Source of the DNA: an uncultured bacterium
GTDB taxonomy: Bacteria; Eisenbacteria; RBG-16-71-46
Assembly (NCBI GenBank): GCA_964609125.1
Contig: CAZSQX010000009.1
Coordinates: 33,887-97,886 of the forward strand
Reading direction: 5' to 3'
Length of the DNA stretch: 64,000 nt
The notes under the pieces were generated by a model. It did not search any database and was not told the DNA's origin. It saw nothing but the letters and a program-made list of their open reading frames with translations. Position 1 is the first letter of the stretch. Each line of letters starts with the position of its first letter. Both the position numbers and the translations under genes were made by a program. Below are positions 18,831-32,880 of this stretch, one piece after another.

Positions 18831-19598
18831 CTACGAGCCGCGTCGCAGCAGGACCATGCCCAGCGCCAGGATCCCCAGCGCGAGGGCCCAGCGCGTGGGC
18901 GATGGGCGCGCGCGCTGGGCGGTGAGCAGGCCCAGGCCGAGTCCGCCGGCGAGCGAGCACTGTACCGCGATTGGCCGGGGCTCGCCCGCCGGCGCCAGCG
19001 ACCACGCCAGCGCGATCCCGAGCAGGGCGCAGCCGATCACGGCCAGCCAGCGCATCACGCGCTCCATCCGCACGCGCAGGCTCCCCGACAGGATGCCCGG
19101 GCCCTCGCGGTAGCCCCAGCCGACGCCCGAGAACCGGAGCGCGAGGTGCGGGATCGCGTAGAGCCCCCACAGCGCGACCGCGCCCAGGGCCGGCTCGCGG
19201 TACGTCATGGCCACGAGCACGCCCACCACCGCGGCGAACGGGCGGAGCGTGAACCAGAACAGCCGGTCCCCCACGGCGGCCAGCGTCGAGCCGAGCACGG
19301 ACTTGAGCCGCGACATGCCCTGCTCGTCGCCCCCGGTGCCGGCGGCGCGCTGCTCCTCGAGCCGCACCGCCGCGCCCAGCGCGATCGAGGCGAGCGTGGG
19401 CTGGGTGTTGAAGAACGCGGTGTGCTCGGCGAGCCGCTTCACGCGCTGGCCGTGGTCGGCATAGAGCGCGCGCAGCGCCGGAGCGAGCGCGAACGCCCAG
19501 CCGATCCCCTGCTGGCGCTCGAAGTTCCACGTCGCCTGGAGCAGGTTGGCGCGGAGTCCGATCGCGAACAGCGTCCCACGGCGCACGGGCCCGCTCAC
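18831..19598 (-). CDS. PTS mannose/fructose/sorbose family EIID component
   Basis: GTG start at 19598 overlaps the IIC stop (GTGA). VSGPVRRGTLFAIGLRANLLQATWNFERQQGIGWAFALAP...HTAFFNTQPTLASIALGAAV matches the IID FNTxP signature. 255 aa. Confidence 0.8.
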   Translation of the reverse strand: MSGPVRRGTLFAIGLRANLLQATWNFERQQGIGWAFALAPALRALYADHGQRVKRLAEHTAFFNTQPTLASIALGAAVRLEEQRAAGTGGDEQGMSRLKSVLGSTLAAVGDRLFWFTLRPFAAVVGVLVAMTYREPALGAVALWGLYAIPHLALRFSGVGWGYREGPGILSGSLRVRMERVMRWLAVIGCALLGIALAWSLAPAGEPRPIAVQCSLAGGLGLGLLTAQRARPSPTRWALALGILALGMVLLRRGS

Positions 19599-21199: not shown

Positions 21200-22171
21200 T
21201 CACTCGGTGTCCTCGCGCACCCACGCCCGGGTGGCGCTCTTCCGCTTCATCACCTCGAGCATGTGCTGGTTGAGCTTCTCGGCCGGCGAGTAGCCGCCGT
21301 AGACCTTGACCAGGTAGTGGAGCGCGATGACCTCGGCGATGACCGTGATGTTCTTGCCGGGCGTGATCGGCACCGTCACGAGCGGCACCTCCACGCCCAG
21401 GATGTCGGTCTTCTTCTCGTCCAGCCCCACCCGCTCGTAGTCCTCGTCGTCCGACCACACGCGCAGGTTGACCTCGACCTCCACCCGCTTCTGCAGCCGG
21501 ATCGAGCGGATCCCGAAGATGGACTGGACGTCGATGATGCCGAGGCCGCGGATCTCCATGTGGTGGCGCAGGAGCTGGTTGCCGGTGCCGATCAGCACGT
21601 CGCCGTGCCGGCGCGTGATCGTGACGACGTCGTCGGCCACCAGGCGGTGGCCGCGCTCGACCAGGTCGAGCGCCGTCTCGGACTTGCCGATCGCGCTCCG
21701 CCCCGTGAACAGGAGCCCGCAGCCGTACACGTCCACGAGCGAGCCGTGCACCGTGGTCGTGGGCGCGAACATGTGGTCGAGGTACGCGGTGAGCGAGTGG
21801 ATGAACGGCGTCGTGCTCTGCGGCGTGCGCAACAGCGGCACCTGCGTCGCGTTCGCCCGCTGGACCAGGTAGGGCGGCACCTCGAGCCCCTTGCACACCA
21901 CGATCAGCGGCATCGTGAACTGGAAAAGCCGGTCGATCGCGTCGCGCACCTGCTTCGGCGACAGCGTCGCGAGGTAGGTGAGCTCGGTCTGGGCGAGGAT
22001 CTGGATGCGCTCCGGCAGGAAGTTCTCGACGAACCCCATGAGTGCCATGCCGGGCCGGTTGATGTCGCTCACGGTGATCTCGCAGCGTGAGGCGAGCGAC
22101 TCGGACATCAGCTCCAGCTGCAGGTCCTCGCGCTGGTCCTCGAACAGGCGGGCGACGCTGAGGGACTTCAC
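21200..22171 (-). CDS. hprK: HPr kinase/phosphorylase
   Basis: ...SDINRPGMALMGF...HGSLVDVYGCGLLFTGRSAIGKSETALDLVERGHRLVADD (P-loop/Walker A)...EIRGLGIIDV... aligns along its full length with B. subtilis HprK. GTG at 22171 is assumed. The ATG at 22210 would overlap hpf. Confidence 0.9.
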   Translation of the reverse strand: MKSLSVARLFEDQREDLQLELMSESLASRCEITVSDINRPGMALMGFVENFLPERIQILAQTELTYLATLSPKQVRDAIDRLFQFTMPLIVVCKGLEVPPYLVQRANATQVPLLRTPQSTTPFIHSLTAYLDHMFAPTTTVHGSLVDVYGCGLLFTGRSAIGKSETALDLVERGHRLVADDVVTITRRHGDVLIGTGNQLLRHHMEIRGLGIIDVQSIFGIRSIRLQKRVEVEVNLRVWSDDEDYERVGLDEKKTDILGVEVPLVTVPITPGKNITVIAEVIALHYLVKVYGGYSPAEKLNQHMLEVMKRKSATRAWVREDTE

Positions 22172-22178
22172 GGTCGTC

Positions 22179-22553
22179 TCAGGCCTCGTCCTCGACCATG
22201 TCGTCCTCACCCTGCCGCCGTCCCGGAGACGGCGGCATGGCGCCGTTCGCTCGCCCGGCGCGGCGCGGAGCGCTGACGCGCTTCTCCTTGCCGCGGCGTA
22301 CGCGATCCTCGAGCCGGTCCGCGGCCAGCTCGATGGCGGCGCGCGCGTCGGCGTGGGACTCGGTGATCACGACGTCCACCTGGTGCGCGCGCAGCGTGAT
22401 CTCGGCGGTGTGGAGCTTGCGCTCCTGCGACACGATGACGCGCACCTCGCGGATGCCGCCGTCGTAGCGCTGCAGCTTCTCCAGGCGCTGCTGGGTGAAG
22501 GACCGGGTCTCGGCATCGAGTTCGCAGTGACGCGCGGTCAGGTGGATCTGCAC
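22179..22553 (-). CDS. hpf: ribosome hibernation promoting factor / sigma-54 modulation protein
   Basis: MQIHLTARHCELDAETRSFTQQRLEKLQRYDGGIREVRVIVSQERKLHTAEITL is the RaiA/HPF fold. It sits in its conserved position after rpoN. Confidence 0.88.
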   Translation of the reverse strand: MQIHLTARHCELDAETRSFTQQRLEKLQRYDGGIREVRVIVSQERKLHTAEITLRAHQVDVVITESHADARAAIELAADRLEDRVRRGKEKRVSAPRRAGRANGAMPPSPGRRQGEDDMVEDEA

Positions 22554-22632
22554 GGGAGTCTCCCTGGCGCCCCCCGGCGCCGGCGGGCGGGTGGGCCCGC
22601 GACCGGACGGGGGACGTCGCGTGTGGGGCGCC

Positions 22633-24072
22633 TCACGCCACGCGCCGGCGGAGCCGGGCGGGCAGGATCTGCAATTGTTCGCGGTACTTGGCCACGGTGC
22701 GGCGGGCGATCTGCAGGCCCTTCTCGTGGAGCAGCTCGGCGATGCGCTGGTCCGAGAGCGGGTCGCGCTTGTCCTCCTCGTCGATGAGTCCCTTGATGAT
22801 GTCCTTCGCGGTGCGCGCCGAGACGTCGTCGCCGTCGTCGGTCGCGAGGCCGCTCGAGAAGAAGAACTTCAGCTCGAACACGCCGCGCGGCGTCTGCACG
22901 TACTTTCCGCTGCAGACGCGGCTGACGGTGGATTCGTGCATGTCGATCTGGCGCGCCACCTGGGCCAGCGTCAGCGGCCGCAGGAACGCGATGCCCTTGT
23001 CGAAGAACTCGCGCTGCTCGCGCACGATGCAGTTCATGACCTTGATCATCGTGCGCCGGCGCTGCTCGATGGTCTGGATGAGCCACTTGGCCGAGGCCAG
23101 CTTGCCCTGGATGTACTCGCGGGTCTGCTTCTCCTCGGCGGTCGCGTCGGGCTTTCGCTTGTTGGCGGCGATGACGCCCTCGTAGGCCGACGAGATGCGC
23201 AGGCGCGGGACGTTGCGGTCGTTGAGCATGACCACGTATTCGTCGTCCACGCGCTCGACGAGCAGGTCGGGCACGACGTACTTGGGGTCCTCGGCCGACA
23301 CCAGCGTGCCCGGCCGCGGGTGGAGCGTGGCGATCTCGTCCGAGGCCTGCTGCACCTCGAGCACGCTCACCTTGAGCAACCGCGCGATCTCCGGGAAGCG
23401 CCGGTTGACGAGGTGGTCGAAGTGGTCGTGGATCATGCGCCACGCGATCGTGTCGCGGTCGCCGCGCGCGTCGAGCTGGATGAGCAGGCATTCGCGCAGG
23501 TCGCGCGCGCCCACGCCGGCGGGCTCGAGCGCCTGCACCACGGCGAGCACCTTCTCGACCTCCTCCTGCGGCACGCCCAGCGACTCGACGATCTCCGGCA
23601 TCGGCGTGACCACCCAGCCGCGGTCGTCGAGCGAGCCCACCAGGAACTCGGCGATGCGCATGGAGCGCTCGGGCAGGTTCAGGAAGTGCAGCTGCTCGAG
23701 CAGGCTCTCGGCGAGCGTCGTGCGCGTGACCGGGACCTTCTCGAGGAACTCCATGCTGGTTTCGCTCTGCGGCACATACGTGCGGTCGAGCGAGCCGTCC
23801 TGCAGGTACTCCGACCAGTCGATCGGGTCCTCCTCGGCGGGGTCCTCGGGCTCCTCGTTGTTCTGCTCGTCGGCGGACGACTCGCGGTCGATGTCCTCCT
23901 GCTCGGTGACCTCGTCCACCTCCTCGAGCAGCGGGTTCTGCAGCACCTCCTGTTTGAGGATCTGCTGCAGCTCCAGCGTCGGCACCTGCAGCAGCTTGAG
24001 CGCCTGCTGGAGCCGGGGCGTCATGATGAGCTTCTGGGTCTGCGACAGGTGCAGCGAGTGCTTCATCTCCAT
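22633..24072 (-). CDS. rpoN: RNA polymerase sigma-54 factor
   Basis: MEMKHSLHLSQTQKLIMTPRLQQALKLLQVPTLELQQ..., C-terminal RpoN box ARRTVAKYRE. 479 aa. Confidence 0.95.
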   Translation of the reverse strand: MEMKHSLHLSQTQKLIMTPRLQQALKLLQVPTLELQQILKQEVLQNPLLEEVDEVTEQEDIDRESSADEQNNEEPEDPAEEDPIDWSEYLQDGSLDRTYVPQSETSMEFLEKVPVTRTTLAESLLEQLHFLNLPERSMRIAEFLVGSLDDRGWVVTPMPEIVESLGVPQEEVEKVLAVVQALEPAGVGARDLRECLLIQLDARGDRDTIAWRMIHDHFDHLVNRRFPEIARLLKVSVLEVQQASDEIATLHPRPGTLVSAEDPKYVVPDLLVERVDDEYVVMLNDRNVPRLRISSAYEGVIAANKRKPDATAEEKQTREYIQGKLASAKWLIQTIEQRRRTMIKVMNCIVREQREFFDKGIAFLRPLTLAQVARQIDMHESTVSRVCSGKYVQTPRGVFELKFFFSSGLATDDGDDVSARTAKDIIKGLIDEEDKRDPLSDQRIAELLHEKGLQIARRTVAKYREQLQILPARLRRRVA

Positions 24073-24090
24073 GAGATCCGTCCCCGTCGC

Positions 24091-24858
24091 CTAGAGGGTG
24101 AATCCTTCACCCAGGTAGTATTGGCGAGCCAGCGGGTTCCCGGCCAGTTCCTGCGGCGTGCCGGAGAGCTGGATGCGTCCGTCGAACATGATGTACGAGC
24201 GGTCGGTGGTGTTGAGCGTGACGCGCACGTTGTGGTCGGTGATGAGCAGGCCCAGGCCCCGGGCGCGCAGCCTTCCGATGATCTCCTGGATCTCCTCCAC
24301 CGCGATCGGGTCGATGCCCACGAACGGCTCGTCGAGCAGCATGAACGACGGTTGCCGCGACAGCGCCCGCGTGATCTCCACTCGCCGGCGCTCCCCGCCC
24401 GAGAGCTTGTGGGCGTGCCGGTCGGCGAGATGGGTGAGGTTCAGGTCGGCGAGCAGCTCCTCGAGCCGCGACTCGCGCTGGGCCGCCGTGAGCGGCATGG
24501 TCTCGAGCACGGACAGCACGTTCTCGCGCACCGTGAGCCGGCGGAAGATGCTCGGCTCCTGCGCCAGGTAGCCGAGCCCGAGCCGCGCGCGGCGGTAGAC
24601 CGGCTCCGTGGTGAGGTCGCGGCCGTCGAGGCGGATGACGCCCTCGTTCGGGCGCAGCAGCCCCACGATCATGTGGAACGTCGTGCTCTTGCCCGCGCCG
24701 TTCGGGCCGAGCAGCCCCACGACCTCGCCGCGCCGCACGTTCAGCGACACGCCCTGCACGACGCGCCACTTGCCGTAGTAGCGCACGAGCCCCTCGGCCA
24801 CGAGGCCGTCGGTGGCCACTGCGGTCGCGGTGGGGGCGTCCGGCAGCACCTCGGTCAC
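24091..24858 (-). CDS. lptB: LPS export ABC transporter ATP-binding protein
   Basis: GLLGPNGAGKSTTFHMIVGLL (Walker A), LSGGERRRVEITRAL (ABC signature), LLDEPFVGIDP (Walker B). Conserved position immediately upstream of rpoN. GTG at 24858 overlaps the upstream stop. Confidence 0.9.
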   Translation of the reverse strand: MTEVLPDAPTATAVATDGLVAEGLVRYYGKWRVVQGVSLNVRRGEVVGLLGPNGAGKSTTFHMIVGLLRPNEGVIRLDGRDLTTEPVYRRARLGLGYLAQEPSIFRRLTVRENVLSVLETMPLTAAQRESRLEELLADLNLTHLADRHAHKLSGGERRRVEITRALSRQPSFMLLDEPFVGIDPIAVEEIQEIIGRLRARGLGLLITDHNVRVTLNTTDRSYIMFDGRIQLSGTPQELAGNPLARQYYLGEGFTL

Positions 24859-25451
24859 CGGTTCCCCCCCGACGAGGGTTTCGCCGTGCCGGCGCCCGCC
24901 TGGACCGTGGCCCGGATGTCGCCGCGGAACTCGAAGTGGTGGAGGTTCGGGTCGCTCTCGAATCCCACGCCCTCGAGCACCGAGCCTTCCTTCTCCACCC
25001 GCACCAGCCGGTCGGACAGGATCCGGTTGCGGCTGTTGGAGAACTGGAGCTCCTCCGTGCTCATGCGCCAGCCCTCGACCGTCTGCAGCACCACGTCGCC
25101 GCGGGCCACCATGTCGCGGGTGCGCTGGTAGAGCTCGCCCTCGCGCGCGACGAGTTCCGAGGACTTGGCGCCGGTCTCGTCGAAGAAGTCGATGCGGACC
25201 GTGCGGGCGGTGACCAGGTCGCGGGTGGTGAACGTGGCCGCCTGCTTGGCGAACATCGTCCACTGGGCGCGTCCCGAGTCGGTCTCGGTGATGGTGAAGT
25301 CCTCGACCTCGCTGTCGGGCAGCTCGCCGGAGGCTCCCGTGCCGGAGACCTTCTTCCCGCCGCTGCAGCCCGCCGGCAGGCCGGCGAGGAGGCCCAGGAG
25401 GAGCAGCGATGCGAGGGCTGCGACCGCGTTCCGGGGAGCGACGGAGGCCAT
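24855..25451 (-). CDS. LptC/LptA-family (OstA-like beta-jellyroll) lipoprotein
   Basis: MASVAPRNAVAALASLLLLGLLAGLPAGCSGG (lipobox LAGC), then a 180-aa beta-rich domain. Its position upstream of lptB matches lptC/lptA in the conserved kds-lpt-rpoN cluster. No separate lptA is present. Confidence 0.6.
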   Translation of the reverse strand: MASVAPRNAVAALASLLLLGLLAGLPAGCSGGKKVSGTGASGELPDSEVEDFTITETDSGRAQWTMFAKQAATFTTRDLVTARTVRIDFFDETGAKSSELVAREGELYQRTRDMVARGDVVLQTVEGWRMSTEELQFSNSRNRILSDRLVRVEKEGSVLEGVGFESDPNLHHFEFRGDIRATVQAGAGTAKPSSGGNR

Positions 25452-25702
25452 TGGGGATATCCAGAAGAGGGTGTGCGGCAACGGCTTCGACGGCCACGCT
25501 AGCAAGGGCCCGGACAGGGTTCAAGCAGGCTCTGTGCCATCCGACATCCCCGCATCGCGATTGGAGTTATCGGCAGGTGGCCGTCGGGACTTTCGTCCGG
25601 CGCGGCCGGCCCGGGACGCGGGCGTCCGGGCGCGGTCGGAGCGCCGCGCGGGCCGGGCGGCGGACTTGACCGCCGCGCGGTCTCCCCTCCCAATGCCGGA
25701 CC

Positions 25703-27739
25703 ATGATGCGGACCCCCGCACTTCCCCTGCTGGCGCTGGCGGCGACGGCCCTTGCCGGCTGCGCGACACCACGCCCGCGCGACTCCGCAGATGGGCCGCT
25801 GCTCGGGCCGGCGGACCCGTTCGCGGTCCGGACCGCCGCTCTCCTCTGGCCTGGGGCCTCGAGCGCGATCCTCCTCGGCGATCCGTCGCTCCGCGCCTCG
25901 GCCGGCCCCTACGCGCTCGAATGGCGCGGGCGCTGTGGTGGCGAGGCGATGCCCGCGGGGCGCTTCGGGCGCGGCGCACCGGGATCGCCCAACGTGCGTT
26001 GGCGCGGCGACGCCGCGCGCGCCACGTGGCGGATGGAGCTCGCGCCGGTCGCCGTCGAGGTCGGCGGCGCGACGCACCTGCTCGCCTCGATCGAGCTCAC
26101 GGTCGAGGCGCACTCGGAGTCGCCGGAGCCGGTCGAGCTCGTGACCGCGCTCCGCCCCGATTCGGCGTTCCCCGTTCCGTCGCGCGGGCCCGAGCCGCCG
26201 GCGGCGCTGCGCTGGCGCGGGAGCGGCTCCGTCGCGAAGGGACCCGAGGCGCCGGAGGGGGGCGAGCTGCGGCTCACCAGCAGCACCGCGCGCGGCCGGC
26301 CGCTGCGCTGGAGGTTCCTGCTCGCGGCCTCCCCGCTCGCCGCCGGGCGCCTGGCGGAGACGTGGCGAAGGAGCCACGCCGACTGCGCCGCGCGCGCGGA
26401 ACGCGAGTGGGCCGCGATGCTGGCGCCCGCCGCCAGGCTCCGGCTCGGCGATGCGGCGCTCGAGTTGGCGGTGGCCGAAGCGCTGCTCGTGCTCGCGGGC
26501 TCGAGCGAGCGGGTGGACGGCGAACTGCGCTCGATCGGCAATCCGTTCCAGTACCGGGACACCTGGCTGCGAGACGCCGCGCGCCAGGCGAGCGCGCTCG
26601 CGCAGTGGGGCCTGCTTGGAACCGCGCGTGAGCTGGCGGCGGACCTGCTGCGTTTCCAGGGGAACGACGGTGCGGTCCTGAGCCAGCCCGGCCAGCCGGA
26701 CGGGACGGGGCAGGCGATGTGGGCGTTGGACGAGGTGTACGGACGCGACGCGGGCACCGCCGTCCCGGAATCGCTGGCTCTGGCCGCGGCCCGGGCATGG
26801 CGCTGGTGCGAGGCCCGGCGGGCGCTCGTCCGCGAGCGCGCTCCGGGGTTCGCCAACCTCATGCCGCCCGCCGATCCGCGCGACAACGAGCTGGCGGCCG
26901 GCTATCTCTTCGGCACGGACGCGTGGACGCTCGCAGGCTTTCGCGCCGGCGCCGCGCTCCTGGCGCGCGCCGGCCGGCCGTCGACCGCGGACTCGGTGCG
27001 CCGCGCGGCCGGCGCGTACGCGGCGAGCCTCGAGGCGCGCGCCGCGCGCGAGGGCGGCGTGCCCGCCCGCTGGTCGGGCCCCGCCCGCGACTGGGGCAAC
27101 TTCACCGCCCTTTTCCCCACCCGTGCGCTGCCCGCCGCGGCCGTGGCCCGCGCGCGTCTGCTCCCGGCCATCGACCACGCCGGACCGGGCGCGGGCCTCG
27201 CCCACTACGGCACGCGCGACACGCTGCACCTCTATCTCGGCGCCGATCTCGCCCTCGACGCGCTGCTCCTCGGCCGGCCGGAGCTGTGGCGTGGCTCGCT
27301 CGCCTCGATGCTCGCCGCGCGCACGGGCACCGGCGGGCTCCCCGAGATGTACTGCGTCTCCACGCGCGCGTTCGGCTGGAACCTGCCGCCGCACGCGACC
27401 TCGGCGGCGGCGCTGCTCGTCCAGGTGCGCCAGGGCCTCGTGTTCGACGCCTTCGGCGACACGCTGCGGCTGACACTCGGCACGCTCCCGGCCTGGTGGG
27501 AGCACGGCTCGAGGCTCGAGCGCGCGCCCACCCGCTGGGGACCGCTGGACCTGGACTTCCGGCGCACCGGCGACCGCGTCTCGTGGCGGTGGACGGCGGT
27601 CCCGGTCCCCACCTTGCTCGCGCTCCCGCCCGGGGCGCGCCGCGTGCCGGCGCCGGGCGACACCACGGCCGGCGGCGAGAGGCACATCGTCCTGCCCGCG
27701 GGACGGGACCGCGCGGAGGTGACGTGCCGGTTCGACTGA
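25703..27739 (+). CDS. lipoprotein with (alpha/alpha)6-barrel glycoside-hydrolase-like domain (GH15/GH63-like)
   Basis: MMRTPALPLLALAATALAGCAT (lipobox). FQYRDTWLRDAARQASALAQWG resembles the glucoamylase-family WxRD segment. 678 aa. Confidence 0.5.
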   Translation: MMRTPALPLLALAATALAGCATPRPRDSADGPLLGPADPFAVRTAALLWPGASSAILLGDPSLRASAGPYALEWRGRCGGEAMPAGRFGRGAPGSPNVRWRGDAARATWRMELAPVAVEVGGATHLLASIELTVEAHSESPEPVELVTALRPDSAFPVPSRGPEPPAALRWRGSGSVAKGPEAPEGGELRLTSSTARGRPLRWRFLLAASPLAAGRLAETWRRSHADCAARAEREWAAMLAPAARLRLGDAALELAVAEALLVLAGSSERVDGELRSIGNPFQYRDTWLRDAARQASALAQWGLLGTARELAADLLRFQGNDGAVLSQPGQPDGTGQAMWALDEVYGRDAGTAVPESLALAAARAWRWCEARRALVRERAPGFANLMPPADPRDNELAAGYLFGTDAWTLAGFRAGAALLARAGRPSTADSVRRAAGAYAASLEARAAREGGVPARWSGPARDWGNFTALFPTRALPAAAVARARLLPAIDHAGPGAGLAHYGTRDTLHLYLGADLALDALLLGRPELWRGSLASMLAARTGTGGLPEMYCVSTRAFGWNLPPHATSAAALLVQVRQGLVFDAFGDTLRLTLGTLPAWWEHGSRLERAPTRWGPLDLDFRRTGDRVSWRWTAVPVPTLLALPPGARRVPAPGDTTAGGERHIVLPAGRDRAEVTCRFD

Positions 27740-28275
27740 CGCGCTTCGCGCTCGTGGGCCTGATGGCGCTGGTCCTGGCGAGCGGGTGCGGCGCGGGCGG
27801 GACCTCGCCGGCCCTCGTCGAGCGGCCCTCGGGCGATCCGCGCCGGGACTTCGCCCGTGCCGTGGCGCTCCAGCGCGAGGGTCAGCACTGGCGGAGCGTC
27901 GAGTTCTTCCGCGCCGCCGCGCAGGCCGATCCGGCCTCGGCGCTGCTCCAGGTCGAGCTGGGCAAGGCGCTCCACAACGCGAGCATCCAGATGGACTTCT
28001 CCGGCCGCGCCGTGCGCTTCGTCGTGGGCCGGAGCCAGGACCGCGCGCGGCTCCGGCACGAGGCGCTCGCGGCGCTCGAGCGCGGGGCGGCGCTCGCTCC
28101 CGGGCCCGGCGAGCAGGTCGCCGCGTGGCTCGCGCATGCGCGCGTCCTGGAGCTGGCCGGTGACGTCGCCGGCGCACTGCTGAGCGTGGAGCGCGGGCTC
28201 GAGTCCGCGCCGGGCACGCCGGCGCTCCTGGGCGCGCGGGCCCGGCTGCTCGACCGCCTGCGGGCGGGCCGTTGA
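27724..28275 (+). CDS. small TPR-like lipoprotein
   Basis: GTG start gives VPVRLTRFALVGLMALVLASGCGAG (lipobox LASGC), followed by helical TPR-like repeats (QREGQHWRSVEFFRAAAQADPASALLQVELGKAL...). Overlaps the previous gene by 16 nt. Confidence 0.55.
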   Translation: MPVRLTRFALVGLMALVLASGCGAGGTSPALVERPSGDPRRDFARAVALQREGQHWRSVEFFRAAAQADPASALLQVELGKALHNASIQMDFSGRAVRFVVGRSQDRARLRHEALAALERGAALAPGPGEQVAAWLAHARVLELAGDVAGALLSVERGLESAPGTPALLGARARLLDRLRAGR

Positions 28276-28337
28276 GGGAAGCCCTGCCGATGGAAGCCCG
28301 GTTTGTTCGTGCGCGGCGCTCGCGGCTAGCATGCGGC

Positions 28338-29744
28338 ATGGTCCGACTCCCGATCGCCCTGCTCGTGCTCGCGTGCGTCCTGTCCGCGAGCCCCCCGCGC
28401 GCCCAGGCCGCCCCCAAAGCGGCCGCCCGGGCAGCCGCGAAGCCGGCCGCCTGGAAGCCCGCGGTGCCGTTCATCGAGGACGACTTCGGCGGCGCGCTTG
28501 CGCTCGCGAAGGAGCGGAAGCTGCCCGTGTTCATCGAGGGCTGGGCGCCCTGGTGACACTCGTGCCGGTCGATGAGGGCCTACGTCTGGACCGACAGGTC
28601 CCTCACGCGGCACGCCGGACGGTTCGTCTGGCTCAGCCTCGACTTCGAGAAGACGAAGAACGCACGCGCGCGCCGGAAGCTCGGGATCAGCGCGTTCCCA
28701 ACGCTCTACGTGGTGGACCCCGCCGACACGCACGTGGTGATCCGCTGGCTGGGGGGCGCCTCGCTGCCCCAGCTCGAGCGGCTGTTCGACGACGGTGAGC
28801 TGGCGGTGAAGGGCGGCGCCCGCGGCCCCGCGCTCGAGGCGCTGATGGCCGCCCACCGGGCCTACGGCGCCGAGCGCCACGCCGAGGCGTGCGGGCACTA
28901 CGTGCGCGCGCTCTCGCTCGCCCCCGAGGACTGGCCCGGGTACCCGCTCGCGGTCGAGTCGCTGATGTTCGCGTACATGCAGGCGGACTCCGCGGAGCCG
29001 AGCGTGCGGCTCGCCGACACCGCGTGGCCGCGGCTCCGGCGAACGCCGTCGGCGGCGATCGTGGCGAGCCTCGCGCTCGACGCCGCGGTGGAACTGCCCG
29101 ACTCGGCGCCCGGCCGCCGCAACTGGCTCTCGCGCTACGAGGCCGCCTGCCACGAGGTGCTGCAGGAGGAAGCGGGCGTGCTGCTCGCGGACGACCGTTC
29201 GGGAGTGTTCTTCTCGCTCGAGGCCGCGCGCGAGGCGGTGGGCGACTCGGCCGGGCTCCTGACACTGCGCGAACGCCATCTCGCCATGCTCGAGGCCGAG
29301 GCCGACCGTGCGGAGGAACCCGAGAAGCGCGCCGTCTACGACTCGCACCGGCTCACGCTCTACCTGGAGCTCGGGCGACCGGAGAAGGCGATCCCCATGC
29401 TGGAGCGATCGCAGCGCGACTTCCCCGGCGATTACAACCCGCCGCAGCGGCTGGCCACCGCCTACAAGGCGATGAAGCGGTGGCCCGAGGCGCTGGCCGC
29501 CTCGACCGAGGCCATGAGCCGCGCCTACGGCCCGCGCCAGTTCCTCGTGTTCAACACGCGCGCCGACATCCAGCTCGGGATGGCCGACACGCTCGCCGCC
29601 CGGCAGACACTCGTCACCGCGCTCGCGTTGGCGGAGAAGATGCCGGAGGGCCTGAAGAGCGCGAGCACGATCCGCTCGCTCAAGGCGCGGCTGGAGAAGC
29701 TGGGCGTGAAGCCCGGAAGCGCAAAGGCGGACGCGGCGCGTTAG
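28338..29744 (+). CDS. secreted thioredoxin-fold (Thioredoxin_7-like) + TPR protein with in-frame TGA at the first redox cysteine (candidate selenoprotein, UxxC)
   Basis: Two track ORFs (28272..28556 and 28572..29744) are in the same frame, separated only by TGA at 28554-28556. The read-through product is ...KLPVFIEGWAPW-[TGA]-HSCRSMRAYVWTDRSLTRHAGRFVWLSLDFEKTKNARARRKLGISAFPTLYVVD..., i.e. the WAxW-CxxC thioredoxin motif with TGA exactly at the first Cys. Signal peptide MVRLPIALLVLACVLSASPPRAQA. C-terminal TPR-like helices. Confidence 0.55.
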
Positions 29745-29769: not shown

Positions 29770-30315
29770 CTACGGGGCCACGGGGGGGCCGCCGCCCTGA
29801 GCGGCCTCGCGCCTGGACCGGAACCACGCCCCGGGCCGGTGTGTGGCCGCGAGGAACGTGCCGATCCCCACGGACGCGAGGAGGTTGGCGACCGCCACCG
29901 GGAGCACGCCGATCCGCTGGAGAACGCCCGGGATCGCCACCGAGGCGCCGGTCCAGAACGCGACCTCCAGCGCCACGAACACGAGCCCGATCACGAGCAC
30001 CGGGTGGCGCGAGCGCATCTCGGCCTGGTGCGTGATCCACGACAGCACGAGCCCGAGCAGGCCGAAGGCGACGAGATGGACGACGGTGAACCTGGCCACC
30101 GCCGGCATGCTCACGCCCTGGACCGTGTCGGCCCGGAGCCCTTCGAAGAGCACGCTGCCCATGAGGGAGGGCGTGAAGAACGCGTCGCCGCGCGTGAGCA
30201 CATCGTAGACGAGGAAGAAGAGGGCGACGATGCCCCCGCCCACGCCGGCGATGTAAAGCGCGTCGTAGATGTGGTCCCCGGCCGTGTGCTTCGGTCGATC
30301 GCTCGGTTCATGCAT
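29770..30315 (-). CDS. hypothetical integral membrane protein (4-5 TM helices)
   Basis: MHEPSDRPKHTAGDHIYDALYIAGVGGGIVALFFLVYDVL...VVHLVAFGLLGLVLSWITH...VLVIGLVFVALEVAFWTGASVAIPGVL. Strong RBS AGGAGG. Divergent from the ArsR-rhodanese gene. Confidence 0.6.
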   Translation of the reverse strand: MHEPSDRPKHTAGDHIYDALYIAGVGGGIVALFFLVYDVLTRGDAFFTPSLMGSVLFEGLRADTVQGVSMPAVARFTVVHLVAFGLLGLVLSWITHQAEMRSRHPVLVIGLVFVALEVAFWTGASVAIPGVLQRIGVLPVAVANLLASVGIGTFLAATHRPGAWFRSRREAAQGGGPPVAP

Positions 30316-30501
30316 GGTGACCTCCTGCGGATGGGCGGCCCACGCACAGCATAGACCCTGCGCCGTTCCCCGGCTGCCGCCCACCGGGCCGCAGCCGTCG
30401 CGGCCGTGCAAAGCCACGGCGGTCAGGTCGCTCGGGACCCGAGGAGACGGGACGGTCCAGACGCCTCCCGGGCATTTCGTGGCTCGCGCGAGGCGAGGGA
30501 C

Positions 30502-30546
30502 TTGACGCCGGGTTCGCGAGGCACGACTATTCAAACGTTCGTTTGA
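30502..30546 (+). promoter_or_regulatory. promoter with inverted-repeat operator upstream of the ArsR-rhodanese gene
   Basis: TTGACG (30502-30507)-N17-GACTAT, followed by the inverted repeat TCAAACG-tt-CGTTTGA (30531-30546) ending 6 nt before the ATG at 30553. This is the geometry typical of ArsR/SmtB autoregulatory operators. Confidence 0.45.
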
Positions 30547-30552
30547 TAAGAG

Positions 30553-31359
30553 ATGGATCCCGGAACCCGGACCATGCCTGTAGCGACCCCGAAGCAGAGG
30601 CTGTACGCCGAGCTCGCCCGACTCGGCCGGGCGCTCGCGAGCCCGCAGCGGCTGGAGCTGCTCGAGCTCCTCGCCCAGGGCGAGCGGTCCGTGGAGGCGC
30701 TCGCGAACGTCGTGGACCTTCCGCTCGCGAACGTGTCGCATCACCTGCAGGTTCTCCGGCGGTCCGGGCTGGTCGAAGGTCGCCGGCAGGGCCTGTTCGT
30801 GCACTACCGGCTCGCCGGTGACGAAGTGTTCGACCTGCACCGGCTGCTCGCGAAGGTCGGCCGCCGGCGTCTCGGCGCGATGGACTCGATCGTGCGTCGC
30901 TACCTCGAGGGGCGGGACGGCCTCGAGCCCGTCGGCCGGTCCGAGCTCCTCCGTCGCGTGCGAGCGGGCTCGGTCACGGTGATCGACGTGCGGCCCGCGG
31001 AGGAGTTCGCGGCCGGCCACGTCCCGGGAGCGATCTCACTACCGCTGGAGGATCTCGAGGCGGGTCTCCGGCGCCTGCCCCCGAGGCGTCCGATCGTCGC
31101 CTACTGCCGCGGGCCCTACTGCGTGATGGCGTTCGAGGCGGTGCGCCGGCTCCGGGCGCGGGGCCTGGACGCGCGCCGGCTCGAGGAGGGATTCCCCGAG
31201 TGGCGCGCCGAGGGGCTGCCGGTCGCCGTGGGCGATTCCCCGGTCGCGGCGGGCGCCGGTTCCCGCGGGCTGCCTGCGCGTCGAACGCGCCCCCGCGCCG
31301 GGGGCGGCCGTCTCCCGACCGCGCGCGTCGCACGCTCCACACCGAGGACCGGCTCATGA
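30553..31359 (+). CDS. ArsR-family HTH transcriptional regulator fused to a rhodanese (sulfurtransferase) domain
   Basis: N-terminal LELLELLAQGERSVEALANVVDLPLANVSHHLQVLRRSGLV (ArsR HTH). C-terminal rhodanese with the active-site loop AYCRGPYC (catalytic Cys). The stop overlaps the next gene (ATGA). Confidence 0.8.
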   Translation: MDPGTRTMPVATPKQRLYAELARLGRALASPQRLELLELLAQGERSVEALANVVDLPLANVSHHLQVLRRSGLVEGRRQGLFVHYRLAGDEVFDLHRLLAKVGRRRLGAMDSIVRRYLEGRDGLEPVGRSELLRRVRAGSVTVIDVRPAEEFAAGHVPGAISLPLEDLEAGLRRLPPRRPIVAYCRGPYCVMAFEAVRRLRARGLDARRLEEGFPEWRAEGLPVAVGDSPVAAGAGSRGLPARRTRPRAGGGRLPTARVARSTPRTGS

Positions 31360-31706
31360 AGACGCTCCTGATCCTGAACGACCCACCGTACGGGTCGGAG
31401 CGGTCCTACAACGGACTTCGGCTCGCGGGCTCGCTCGCCAGGCGGGAGGGTGAAGAGGTCCGCGTGTTCCTGATGGGCGACGCGGCGGCCTGCGCCCGGT
31501 CCGGGCAGAAGGTGCCGTCCGGCCACTACTGCATCCAGACCATGCTGGCCGCGGTCACACGACACGGCGGCCGGGTCGGTGTCTGCGGGACCTGCATGGA
31601 TGCCCGCGGACTCGTGGACGCGGACCTCGTCGAGGGAGCCCACCGGAGCAGCATGGACGAACTCACGGCGTGGACGCTCGAGGTGGACCGCACGCTCGTC
31701 TTCTGA
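31356..31706 (+). CDS. DsrE/DsrF-like (TusD-like) sulfur-relay family protein
   Basis: 116 aa: MKTLLILNDPPYGSERSYNGLRLAGSLARREGEEVRVFLMGDAAACA...GVCGTCMDARGL is the DsrE-fold pattern with conserved Cys. RBS GAGGA. Confidence 0.7.
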   Translation: MKTLLILNDPPYGSERSYNGLRLAGSLARREGEEVRVFLMGDAAACARSGQKVPSGHYCIQTMLAAVTRHGGRVGVCGTCMDARGLVDADLVEGAHRSSMDELTAWTLEVDRTLVF

Positions 31707-31719
31707 CCGAGGTGCTCGC

Positions 31720-32880
31720 ATGAACGGGAACGGAAGCACGGTCCTGGTCCTGGGCGGCGGCGTGGGCGGCGTCGTGGCGGCCCGCGAGCTGCGCCGGCGG
31801 CTGCCGCGGCGTCACCGGGTCGTGCTGATCGAGCGCGGCACGGCCTTCTCCTTCGCCCCCTCCTACCTCTGGGTGCTGACCGGTGCGCGCACGGCGGCCG
31901 GCATCACGCGGCCGCTGTCGCGGCTGGCCCGCCACGGCATCGAGGTGGTCCAGGGCGAGATCGAGCGCATCGATGCCGGCCGACGAAGCGTCTCGGTCGG
32001 CGGCCGGACCCTGCACGGGGACCATCTCGTGGTGGCGCTCGGGGCCGAGTTCGCTCCCGAGACGATCCCGGGCCTCGCCGAGTCGGGCGCGAACCTCTAC
32101 GACCTCGAGGGGAGCGAACGCATCCGGGACGCGCTCTCCACCCTCCGGGGCGGGCGGCTCGCGCTGCTCACGGCGACACCCGCCTACCGCTGCCCGGCCG
32201 CGCCCTACGAGGCCGCGATGCTCATCGAGTCCGTGCTGCGACGCCGGGGCGTCCGCGACCGGGTGCGACTGGACTTCTACGCCGCGGAGCCCGGGCCCAT
32301 GGGCGTGGCCGGACCGGACGTGTCGCGCGCGGTCCGGGGCATGATCGAGGCGAAGGGTGTGACGTATCATCCGGGGCTCCAGGTCCGGAGCGTGGACCCC
32401 GGGCAGCGTGTGCTCCGCTTCGAGGACGGCACGACGGCGGAGTTCGACCAGCTGGTCTACGTCCCGCCGCACCGCGCGCCGAGGGTCGCGCGCGAGTCCG
32501 GGCTCGTCGGTCCGAGCGGGTGGATGCAGGTGGACCGGCATCTCCTCACGACGGAGCACGAAGGGGTCTGCGCCATCGGTGACGTGGTCTCCATCCCGCT
32601 GCAGATGGGGAAGCCCCTCCCGAAGGCGGGCGTGTTCGCGCATGCCGAGGCCATCGTGGTCGCGAGGAACATCGCCCGGACGATCACGGGGCGGGGCGAG
32701 CCGGCGAGCTTCGACGGCCATGGCGAGTGCTTCGTCGAGGTCGGGGACTCGCGGGCCGGATTCGGCAGGGGGAACTTCTATGCGGAGCCGGCACCGCAGG
32801 TGCGGCTCCACCCGCCCGGCCGCTGGTGGCACCTCGGCAAGCTGGCGTTCGAGCAGTACTGGCTGCGGCGCGTGCTGTAG
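31720..32880 (+). CDS. sqr: sulfide:quinone oxidoreductase-like FAD-dependent pyridine nucleotide-disulfide oxidoreductase
   Basis: MNGNGSTVLVLGGGVGGVVAAREL (FAD GxGxxG), Cys-containing YRCPAAPYE and HGECFVEVGD segments. 386 aa. Co-oriented with the ArsR-Rhd and DsrE genes. Confidence 0.75.
   Translation: MNGNGSTVLVLGGGVGGVVAARELRRRLPRRHRVVLIERGTAFSFAPSYLWVLTGARTAAGITRPLSRLARHGIEVVQGEIERIDAGRRSVSVGGRTLHGDHLVVALGAEFAPETIPGLAESGANLYDLEGSERIRDALSTLRGGRLALLTATPAYRCPAAPYEAAMLIESVLRRRGVRDRVRLDFYAAEPGPMGVAGPDVSRAVRGMIEAKGVTYHPGLQVRSVDPGQRVLRFEDGTTAEFDQLVYVPPHRAPRVARESGLVGPSGWMQVDRHLLTTEHEGVCAIGDVVSIPLQMGKPLPKAGVFAHAEAIVVARNIARTITGRGEPASFDGHGECFVEVGDSRAGFGRGNFYAEPAPQVRLHPPGRWWHLGKLAFEQYWLRRVL

Follow-up and report, generated by a model that had tools for sequence, protein, structure and literature searches.

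A candidate exported selenoprotein combining a Thioredoxin_7 domain with a tetratricopeptide repeat superhelix in Candidatus Eisenbacteria and Acidobacteriota

Contig CAZSQX010000009.1 of the Candidatus Eisenbacteria assembly GCA_964609125.1 was analyzed over a stretch of 64,000 nt (73% G+C), referred to below as the window. At 28338-29744 on the plus strand, the explanation that best accounts for the evidence as a whole, and which we hold with considerable confidence, is a single complete gene for an exported selenoprotein; it comprises 468 codons including selenocysteine (Sec) 73 and ends at a TAG stop (29742-29744). The TGA at 28554-28556 on the same strand, which would encode the first position of a UxxC active site in a thioredoxin fold, is very probably a genuine Sec codon, as indicated by Sec/Cys interchange among orthologues, coding signal on both sides of the codon and independent re-assembly. 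An earlier interpretation based on the DNA letters and their translations alone (the sequence-only reading) had proposed a selenoprotein at this locus, and its interpretation is supported as essentially right.

Reading frame, orthologues and selenocysteine/cysteine interchange

The sequence-only reading described two adjacent open reading frames (ORFs) in one frame, split solely by the TGA, with the stop falling on the first Cys of a WAPW-U-HSC motif. Frame translation confirmed that the TGA at 28554-28556 is the only in-frame stop across 28272-29744, with one ORF on either side, and the read-through sequence (...LPVFIEGWAPW-*-HSCRSMRAYVWTD...) is exactly as described. The proposed end of the gene at 29744 holds; its start is better placed at ATG 28338 (MVRLPIALLVLAC..., the beginning of a signal peptide) than at TTG 28272. 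With this start, the TGA becomes codon 73, and residue 76 (28563-28565) is the resolving Cys. The G+C content at third codon positions (GC3) is about 0.94 on either side of the TGA, with periodicity continuous across the codon, and in the 64-kb window this TGA alone combines GC3 coding periodicity with an open frame of 50 codons on each side. A reassigned genetic code was considered and rejected because TGA terminates ordinary genes of the window (rpoN, hprK and lptC among them), the Pfam domains of rpoN reaching its final residues. Gene callers divide the locus into products of 72 and 390 amino acids (aa).

One genome per GTDB species was scanned, which yielded 546 stretches with relatives; the best 80 of these served as orthologue loci, 79 of them informative at the Sec codon and one beginning too late to judge. 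The aligned codon is TGA in 67 of the 79 informative loci, in addition to the window, and TGC or TGT in the remaining 12, so the orthologue comparison suggested by the sequence-only reading gives 68 TGA forms, the window included, against 12 Cys codons at the same position, with both flanks conserved. The motif around the codon is invariant (W-A-P-W-[U/C]-H-x-C-R-S), and the orthologues share 43-76% amino-acid identity with the window protein. Their hosts are mainly Candidatus Eisenbacteria and Acidobacteriota (Thermoanaerobaculia, Vicinamibacteria and Holophagales), and the family is widespread among soil members of these two groups. In all TGA forms the frame stays open 5' of the codon and encodes a signal peptide and the first half of the thioredoxin fold, with the pattern LPFIEDDYxxALxxAxxxxxPxFxExWAPW; this in-frame conservation shows that the region 5' of the TGA is under purifying selection.

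A protein search with the read-through query returned 950 relatives. Among the best 120 protein clusters, 99 are 289-393 aa long, a few of them shortened further by contig ends, and those short clusters that were aligned begin at the Met just past the CxxC motif; WAPWCHxC is present in the remaining 21, which at 442-488 aa represent the complete protein. The short clusters are the trace left by gene callers halting at a conserved TGA.

Sec forms outnumber Cys forms by about 5:1, and in a neighbour-joining tree the 12 Cys forms arise at about nine separate places among them, as single tips or small clades. Given this scatter within Sec clades, Sec appears to be ancestral in the family and to have been replaced by Cys about nine times. 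Five loci (L005, L006, L019, L038 and L063) lie on contigs binned as Methylomirabilota, Verrucomicrobiia, Terriglobales, Saccharimonadales and Deltaproteobacteria; in the tree, however, these copies group with Eisenbacteria sequences, and L005 and L006 are near-identical around the motif, a pattern that suggests mis-binning rather than wide phyletic spread. Two further loci, L052 and L073, have post-Sec open frames of 569 and 687 codons instead of the usual ~385, and a C-terminal extension, a fusion or a lost stop codon could each account for this.

The identical protein is recorded on seven contigs, four of which were examined: three from Joint Genome Institute (JGI) metagenomes and one from an independent Logan assembly. 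They originate from four different samples, all four carry the TGA, and over 3.4-5.2 kb each is distinguished from the window by 0-2 bases.

A conserved stem-loop downstream of the UGA

An intragenic hairpin of the selenocysteine insertion sequence (SECIS) type is located at 28561-28614 on the plus strand, starting 4 nt past the UGA; its apical loop (28587-28592) begins 30 nt after the UGA. When single sequences were folded over the 72 nt from the TGA, one long hairpin emerged repeatedly, and a family-wide model of 21 pairs was written from these folds (alignment columns 8-61). In the window sequence, 3 of the 21 model pairs are shifted by one register around T28599. Across the ungapped alignment of the 67 TGA forms, 85.3% of cells are standard-paired, compared with 33-52% in controls in which the 3' partner was slid by 1-3 columns. 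Cells with double changes number 22, against 7.7 ± 2.2 in shuffles, and several compensatory changes fall at synonymous third positions; at pair 24-48, for example, GC was replaced by AU three times (AGG/GCC to AGA/GCU) and by CG three times (CGC/xCG).

The structure distinguishes Sec forms from Cys forms. When the same 21 pairs are imposed on the 12 Cys forms, 65% are paired, versus 85% in the Sec forms, and the mean imposed-structure energy is -8.5 kcal/mol, versus -22.7 kcal/mol in the Sec forms (Mann-Whitney p about 1e-6 to 1e-5). Stability was further compared with synonymous-codon shuffles in which each protein sequence and the family codon usage were held fixed. The TGA forms are about 7 kcal/mol stabler than these shuffles (mean z = -1.96; 98% below zero; Wilcoxon p = 1e-11), whereas the Cys forms show no excess stability (z = -0.09); for the window hairpin itself, 2.4% of 1000 shuffles are equally stable. 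The fold check proposed by the sequence-only reading thus recovers a conserved stem-loop directly 3' of the UGA and within the ORF, selected at synonymous sites in TGA forms only. As for the individual pairings that it had listed, the outer one (gtgccg/cggcac) is part of the conserved hairpin, while the inner one (ggacc-gaca-ggtcc) is specific to the window and is not the conserved apical stem. No Rfam family was detected at gathering thresholds in the window, and only chance matches at E up to 10 were obtained around the TGA.

One Cys form departs from the general pattern: L040 (1157-1228) has TGT at the Sec position, yet its hairpin is 86% paired with an energy of -23.7 kcal/mol. It looks like a recent Sec-to-Cys switch in which the hairpin has not yet decayed.

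Decoding machinery and alternative explanations

No tRNA was detected in the window, and, as the sequence-only reading had stated, none of selA, selB, selD and selC was found there. A tblastn search with E. coli SelA, SelB and SelD gave no match in the window or the 80 loci (1.17 Mb). Absence of sel genes from the window and the loci is expected and uninformative, these being a few genes per multi-megabase genome. One TGA-form locus on a 563-kb acidobacteriotal contig (L058) carries a tRNA-Sec at 19441-19535, about 9 kb downstream of the selenoprotein gene. This tRNA has a UCA anticodon and G73, matches the Rfam tRNA-Sec model RF01852 over its full length (71.1 bits; gathering threshold 47) and, in a structure drawn by hand, shows an acceptor/T branch of the 8/5 type. 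It is flanked by tonB, exbB, a prepilin peptidase and other genes, with no adjacent sel genes. A scan of all loci for further in-frame TGAs returned ordinary gene ends only.

The sequence-only reading had itself offered a TGC-to-TGA nonsense pseudogene or a sequencing or assembly error at 28554-28556 as alternatives, and a single base change is indeed enough to convert TGC into TGA, in a window without sel genes. Assembly error is excluded because at least four samples, assembled independently, yielded the same TGA. A pseudogene is likewise excluded: besides the four independent assemblies of the same organism, 67 other species-level genomes carry the same TGA, purifying selection acts on both of its flanks, and a hairpin specific to TGA forms is maintained at synonymous sites. 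Next to nothing is left of the probability of either. Only slightly more credible, and still very improbable, is a pair of genes, in which a 72-aa secreted peptide with a true TGA stop would be followed by an independent 390-aa tetratricopeptide repeat (TPR) protein starting at ATG 28572. The same split is called on every contig and that ATG lies 15 nt past the TGA; however, such a division would sever the thioredoxin fold at its active site and leave the 390-aa product without a signal peptide. Moreover, in the Cys-form orthologues one uninterrupted protein runs through the junction with the same sequence, the Met in question is a conserved internal residue (...CRSM...) that is L in L010, and the hairpin signal is again specific to TGA forms.

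A UGA that is recoded, but not as Sec, is the least improbable of these alternatives and is nevertheless unlikely. The codon might be read as Cys by a selC* tRNACys(UCA), as Ser by an acidobacterial allo-tRNA acting as an opal suppressor, or by low-level near-cognate read-through. Precedents exist: tRNASec-like allo-tRNAs of the 8/4 or 9/3 type, possible nonsense suppressors, occur in Acidobacteria, and selC* tRNACys(UCA) occurs together with a second SelB in some deltaproteobacteria (PMC5389517); in addition, neither selA nor selD was seen in the window and loci. The tRNA of L058, however, is a full-length tRNA-Sec match scoring 71 bits against 47, it has G73 where the selC* tRNACys has U73, and its hand-drawn structure is of the 8/5 type and not 8/4 or 9/3, while selC* was not found in Acidobacteria (PMC5389517). 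The recoded position coincides with the nucleophilic Cys of CxxC, a classic Sec site, and a general suppressor would need no local hairpin and would affect more than one TGA per 64 kb.

Several observations nonetheless weigh against the reading of a Sec-encoding gene with the function proposed below. Measured against dinucleotide shuffles, the window hairpin shows no significant excess of stability (z = -0.95); this shuffle is uninformative because any 73%-GC sequence folds well, and the informative tests are synonymous-codon shuffling and the contrast with Cys forms. RNAalifold, applied to the 67-sequence alignment, missed the hairpin and returned five near-invariant pairs only. The pairing model was derived from the tested sequences themselves, which favours it over the slid controls. 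The bSECISearch consensus expects a G in the apical loop of a bacterial SECIS, and in most members the loop is UCAC or UUCACC, without the consensus G. Apart from the one tRNA-Sec, no selA, selB, selD or selC was found in the window or in the 1.17 Mb of loci. The structure model is that of a 61%-identical Cys-form orthologue (P0028) and not of the window protein. Finally, no conserved gene neighbours hint at a substrate or an electron donor, and the proposed function is drawn from fold analogy.

Protein architecture, predicted function and relation to known families

The three-part organization given by the sequence-only reading, a signal peptide followed by a Thioredoxin_7/DsbD-gamma-type domain and a C-terminal TPR region, is borne out by Pfam and by the N-termini of the orthologues. 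A Sec-type (general secretory) signal peptide is encoded at 28338-28412 on the plus strand, with cleavage, judged by eye, between MVRLPIALLVLACVLSASPPRAQA and A; in every orthologue, whether a Sec or a Cys form, the initial M is followed by a hydrophobic stretch and then by an AxA-like site. A lipoprotein reading, prompted by the lipobox LVLAC in the window signal peptide, was rejected, as that Cys is not conserved in orthologues. The thioredoxin-fold domain spans 28476-28721 (plus strand; aa 47-128), with the active site W-A-P-W-U73-H-S-C76. With the stop replaced by Cys, Pfam assigns residues 47-128 to Thioredoxin_7 (PF13899; 1.3e-9, 38.4 bits, cut-off 27); the CxxC motif opens helix 1 and a conserved cis-Pro loop is present, as expected of the thioredoxin fold. 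By sequence, this domain is closest to the Thioredoxin_7 protein 2kuc (1.8e-14) and the DsbD gamma domain (1.7e-8).

The C-terminal part is an all-alpha TPR superhelix of about 8 repeats (28830-29702, plus strand; aa ~165-455), recognized by Pfam as TPR_12/TPR_19. Its invariant polar motifs (DDRSG, RAVYDSHR, DYNPxxRL and AYGPR) suggest that the superhelix offers a specific surface for binding and is not just a generic scaffold. AlphaFold modeling of full-length P0028 (predicted local distance difference test score 89.8; predicted template modeling score 0.86) gave a confident model with a disordered signal region, a thioredoxin fold at ~47-160 and ~16 helices arranged as a TPR superhelix at 166-456. 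In a Foldseek search of the PDB, the top whole-chain match was E. coli YbbN/CnoX (3qou; E 8.7e-6) with a template modeling (TM) score of 0.19-0.31. No NCBIfam model scored above its cut-off for the window protein.

From these elements a working scheme can be proposed. During translation, the UGA at 28554 would be decoded as Sec, the mRNA hairpin at 28561-28614 recruiting SelB with Sec-tRNASec to the ribosome. The product would carry a cleavable signal peptide, a thioredoxin fold with the U73-H-S-C76 redox centre and the long TPR superhelix; after export through the Sec secretion pathway, it could act as a periplasmic thiol-disulfide (or sulfenate) reductase or isomerase. Its selenolate would attack client disulfides or oxidized cysteines, Cys76 would resolve the selenenylsulfide, and clients might be held by the TPR groove, as in the cytoplasmic thioredoxin-TPR chaperedoxin CnoX/YbbN; re-reduction would presumably proceed via a membrane electron donor of the DsbD/CcdA type. 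By analogy, a periplasmic selenol-based reductase with a client-binding TPR groove is a plausible assignment, though we put it at somewhat less than an even chance. More tentative still, and on balance doubtful, is the idea that the protein is the founding member of an exported, Sec-ancestral chaperedoxin-like selenoprotein family and that soil Eisenbacteria and Acidobacteriota depend on selenium for redox protection of envelope proteins; here the selenolate thioredoxin domain would repair oxidized cysteines of clients lying in the conserved TPR groove (DDRSG / DxHR / DYNP / YGPR). If true, evidence of the Sec trait would here be obtained for the first time in candidate phylum Eisenbacteria; no paper pairing 'selenocysteine' with 'Eisenbacteria' was found in the literature searched.

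Among bacterial selenoproteins, the commonest pattern is Sec at the first UxxC position of a thioredoxin fold, accompanied by homologues with Cys and by a SECIS within the gene. The family described here shares its main features: Sec replaces the N-terminal nucleophilic Cys of CxxC, Cys homologues exist, the hairpin lies directly downstream within the ORF, and several such families are also exported. The principle being well established, the present case extends it and is not conceptually new.

An inventory of 119 prokaryotic selenoprotein families published in 2026 (PMC13188914) includes, in its Table 1, thioredoxin (PF00085), a thiol:disulfide interchange protein (PF13098), DsbA-like, DsbG-like and thiol-disulfide isomerase-like proteins, and Trx7/PDZ (CxxU). 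A Thioredoxin_7-TPR family was not found in part 1 of that table, and the words TPR, tetratricopeptide, Acidobacteria and Eisenbacteria did not turn up in a term search of the whole paper; deep-Sep and BSepDB are likewise silent on TPR. Unlike the UxxC families listed there, the window family combines a signal peptide and Thioredoxin_7 with a TPR superhelix of about 300 aa, its Sec form is dominant and ancestral-looking, and it is hosted by soil Eisenbacteria and Acidobacteriota in place of anaerobic deltaproteobacteria or clostridia. The predicted Trx7/PDZ selenoprotein NF041199 likewise fuses Thioredoxin_7 to a protein-binding module, but it is of the CxxU type, with Sec at the resolving position, and its partner is PDZ, in contrast to the UxxC and TPR of the window protein. 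Neither NF041199 nor SaoT (NF040730) nor HUIPC (NF047660) matched the window protein at E < 0.1, and TsoB (NF045694) scored 19.4 bits against a cut-off of 805, placing the protein outside these named thioredoxin-like selenoproteins.

Like CnoX/YbbN (E. coli 3qou, Salmonella 3qdn), the window protein has an N-terminal thioredoxin domain followed by a TPR domain, and some of its homologues are named 'thioredoxin-like negative regulator of GroEL' in their source records. CnoX resides in the cytoplasm, has about 4 TPRs and lacks Sec, and the motif of E. coli YbbN is SxxC; the window protein differs in having a signal peptide, about 8 TPRs, UxxC and a thioredoxin domain of the Thioredoxin_7 type. 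The signal peptide present in all orthologues and the lack of a YbbN-type NCBIfam match speak against a cytoplasmic location and against membership of YbbN by sequence. Because the TM-score to 3qou is low, the modeled likeness is best described as a resemblance in architecture and not as demonstrated whole-protein homology. Compared with exported DsbD gamma/Thioredoxin_7 proteins (2fwe, 1vrs, 2kuc and 3f9u), the window protein lacks the membrane (beta) and alpha domains of DsbD, and its family is set apart by the active-site dipeptide H-S/T, the TPR fusion and Sec. It is not a three-domain DsbD, since it reaches 24.6 bits with NF001419, for which the cut-off is 330, and the gamma-like region alone aligns.

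We therefore regard this as a new family of a well-known kind, unusual in that Sec is dominant and apparently ancestral and that a thioredoxin-TPR architecture is exported. Most bacterial selenoprotein families are not known to have a dominant Sec form and derived Cys forms, and a Sec-dominant family with derived Cys forms is a good system for asking what Sec offers beyond Cys. The family adds the Thioredoxin_7-TPR architecture to the selenoprotein inventory and extends Sec use to poorly studied soil phyla, while its 62 natural SECIS variants with matched Cys-form controls could improve bacterial SECIS models. Annotation of the family, whose relatives occupy 546 stretches in the species-representative genomes of GTDB, is affected as well: all TGA-form entries examined in GenBank and JGI are truncated and labeled 'TPR repeat protein', with the signal peptide and redox centre lost.

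Upstream of the selenoprotein gene, an hprK-rpoN-lptC cluster is located at 21200-25505 on the minus strand; the rpoN/lptC neighbourhood is common to 12 loci of the window's subclade, Sec and Cys forms alike. The co-directional block with two lipoproteins noted by the sequence-only reading is present: the first gene (25703-27739) encodes 678 aa with the lipobox LAGC, and the second (about 27724-28275) about 183 aa with the lipobox LASGC and a faint similarity to TPR_14. Neither lipoprotein has a Pfam match above threshold, and L006, a close relative, is the one locus of the 80 in which the pair recurs. A compact module for sulfur handling, made up of co-directional genes for an ArsR-HTH/rhodanese fusion, DsrE (about 31356-31706) and a flavoprotein resembling sulfide:quinone oxidoreductase (SQR) or flavocytochrome c sulfide dehydrogenase (FCSD), lies at 30553-32880, as the same reading had indicated; the link to sulfur and selenium trafficking that it had drawn from this proximity does not hold up. 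The ArsR-rhodanese and DsrE genes do not recur in the other loci examined (80), and the one match to the SQR-like gene, in L025, is distant. Because these neighbours are not conserved, the trafficking link is most likely a coincidence. Clustering of neighbourhoods revealed no partner conserved across the family, and the selenoprotein gene seems to behave as a stand-alone unit.

On the minus strand, the long ORF at 29770-31020 (416 aa) has no Pfam match; at this position on the sibling contigs, gene callers give a 181-aa product only (window coordinates 29770-30315), for which the related loci contain no homologue.

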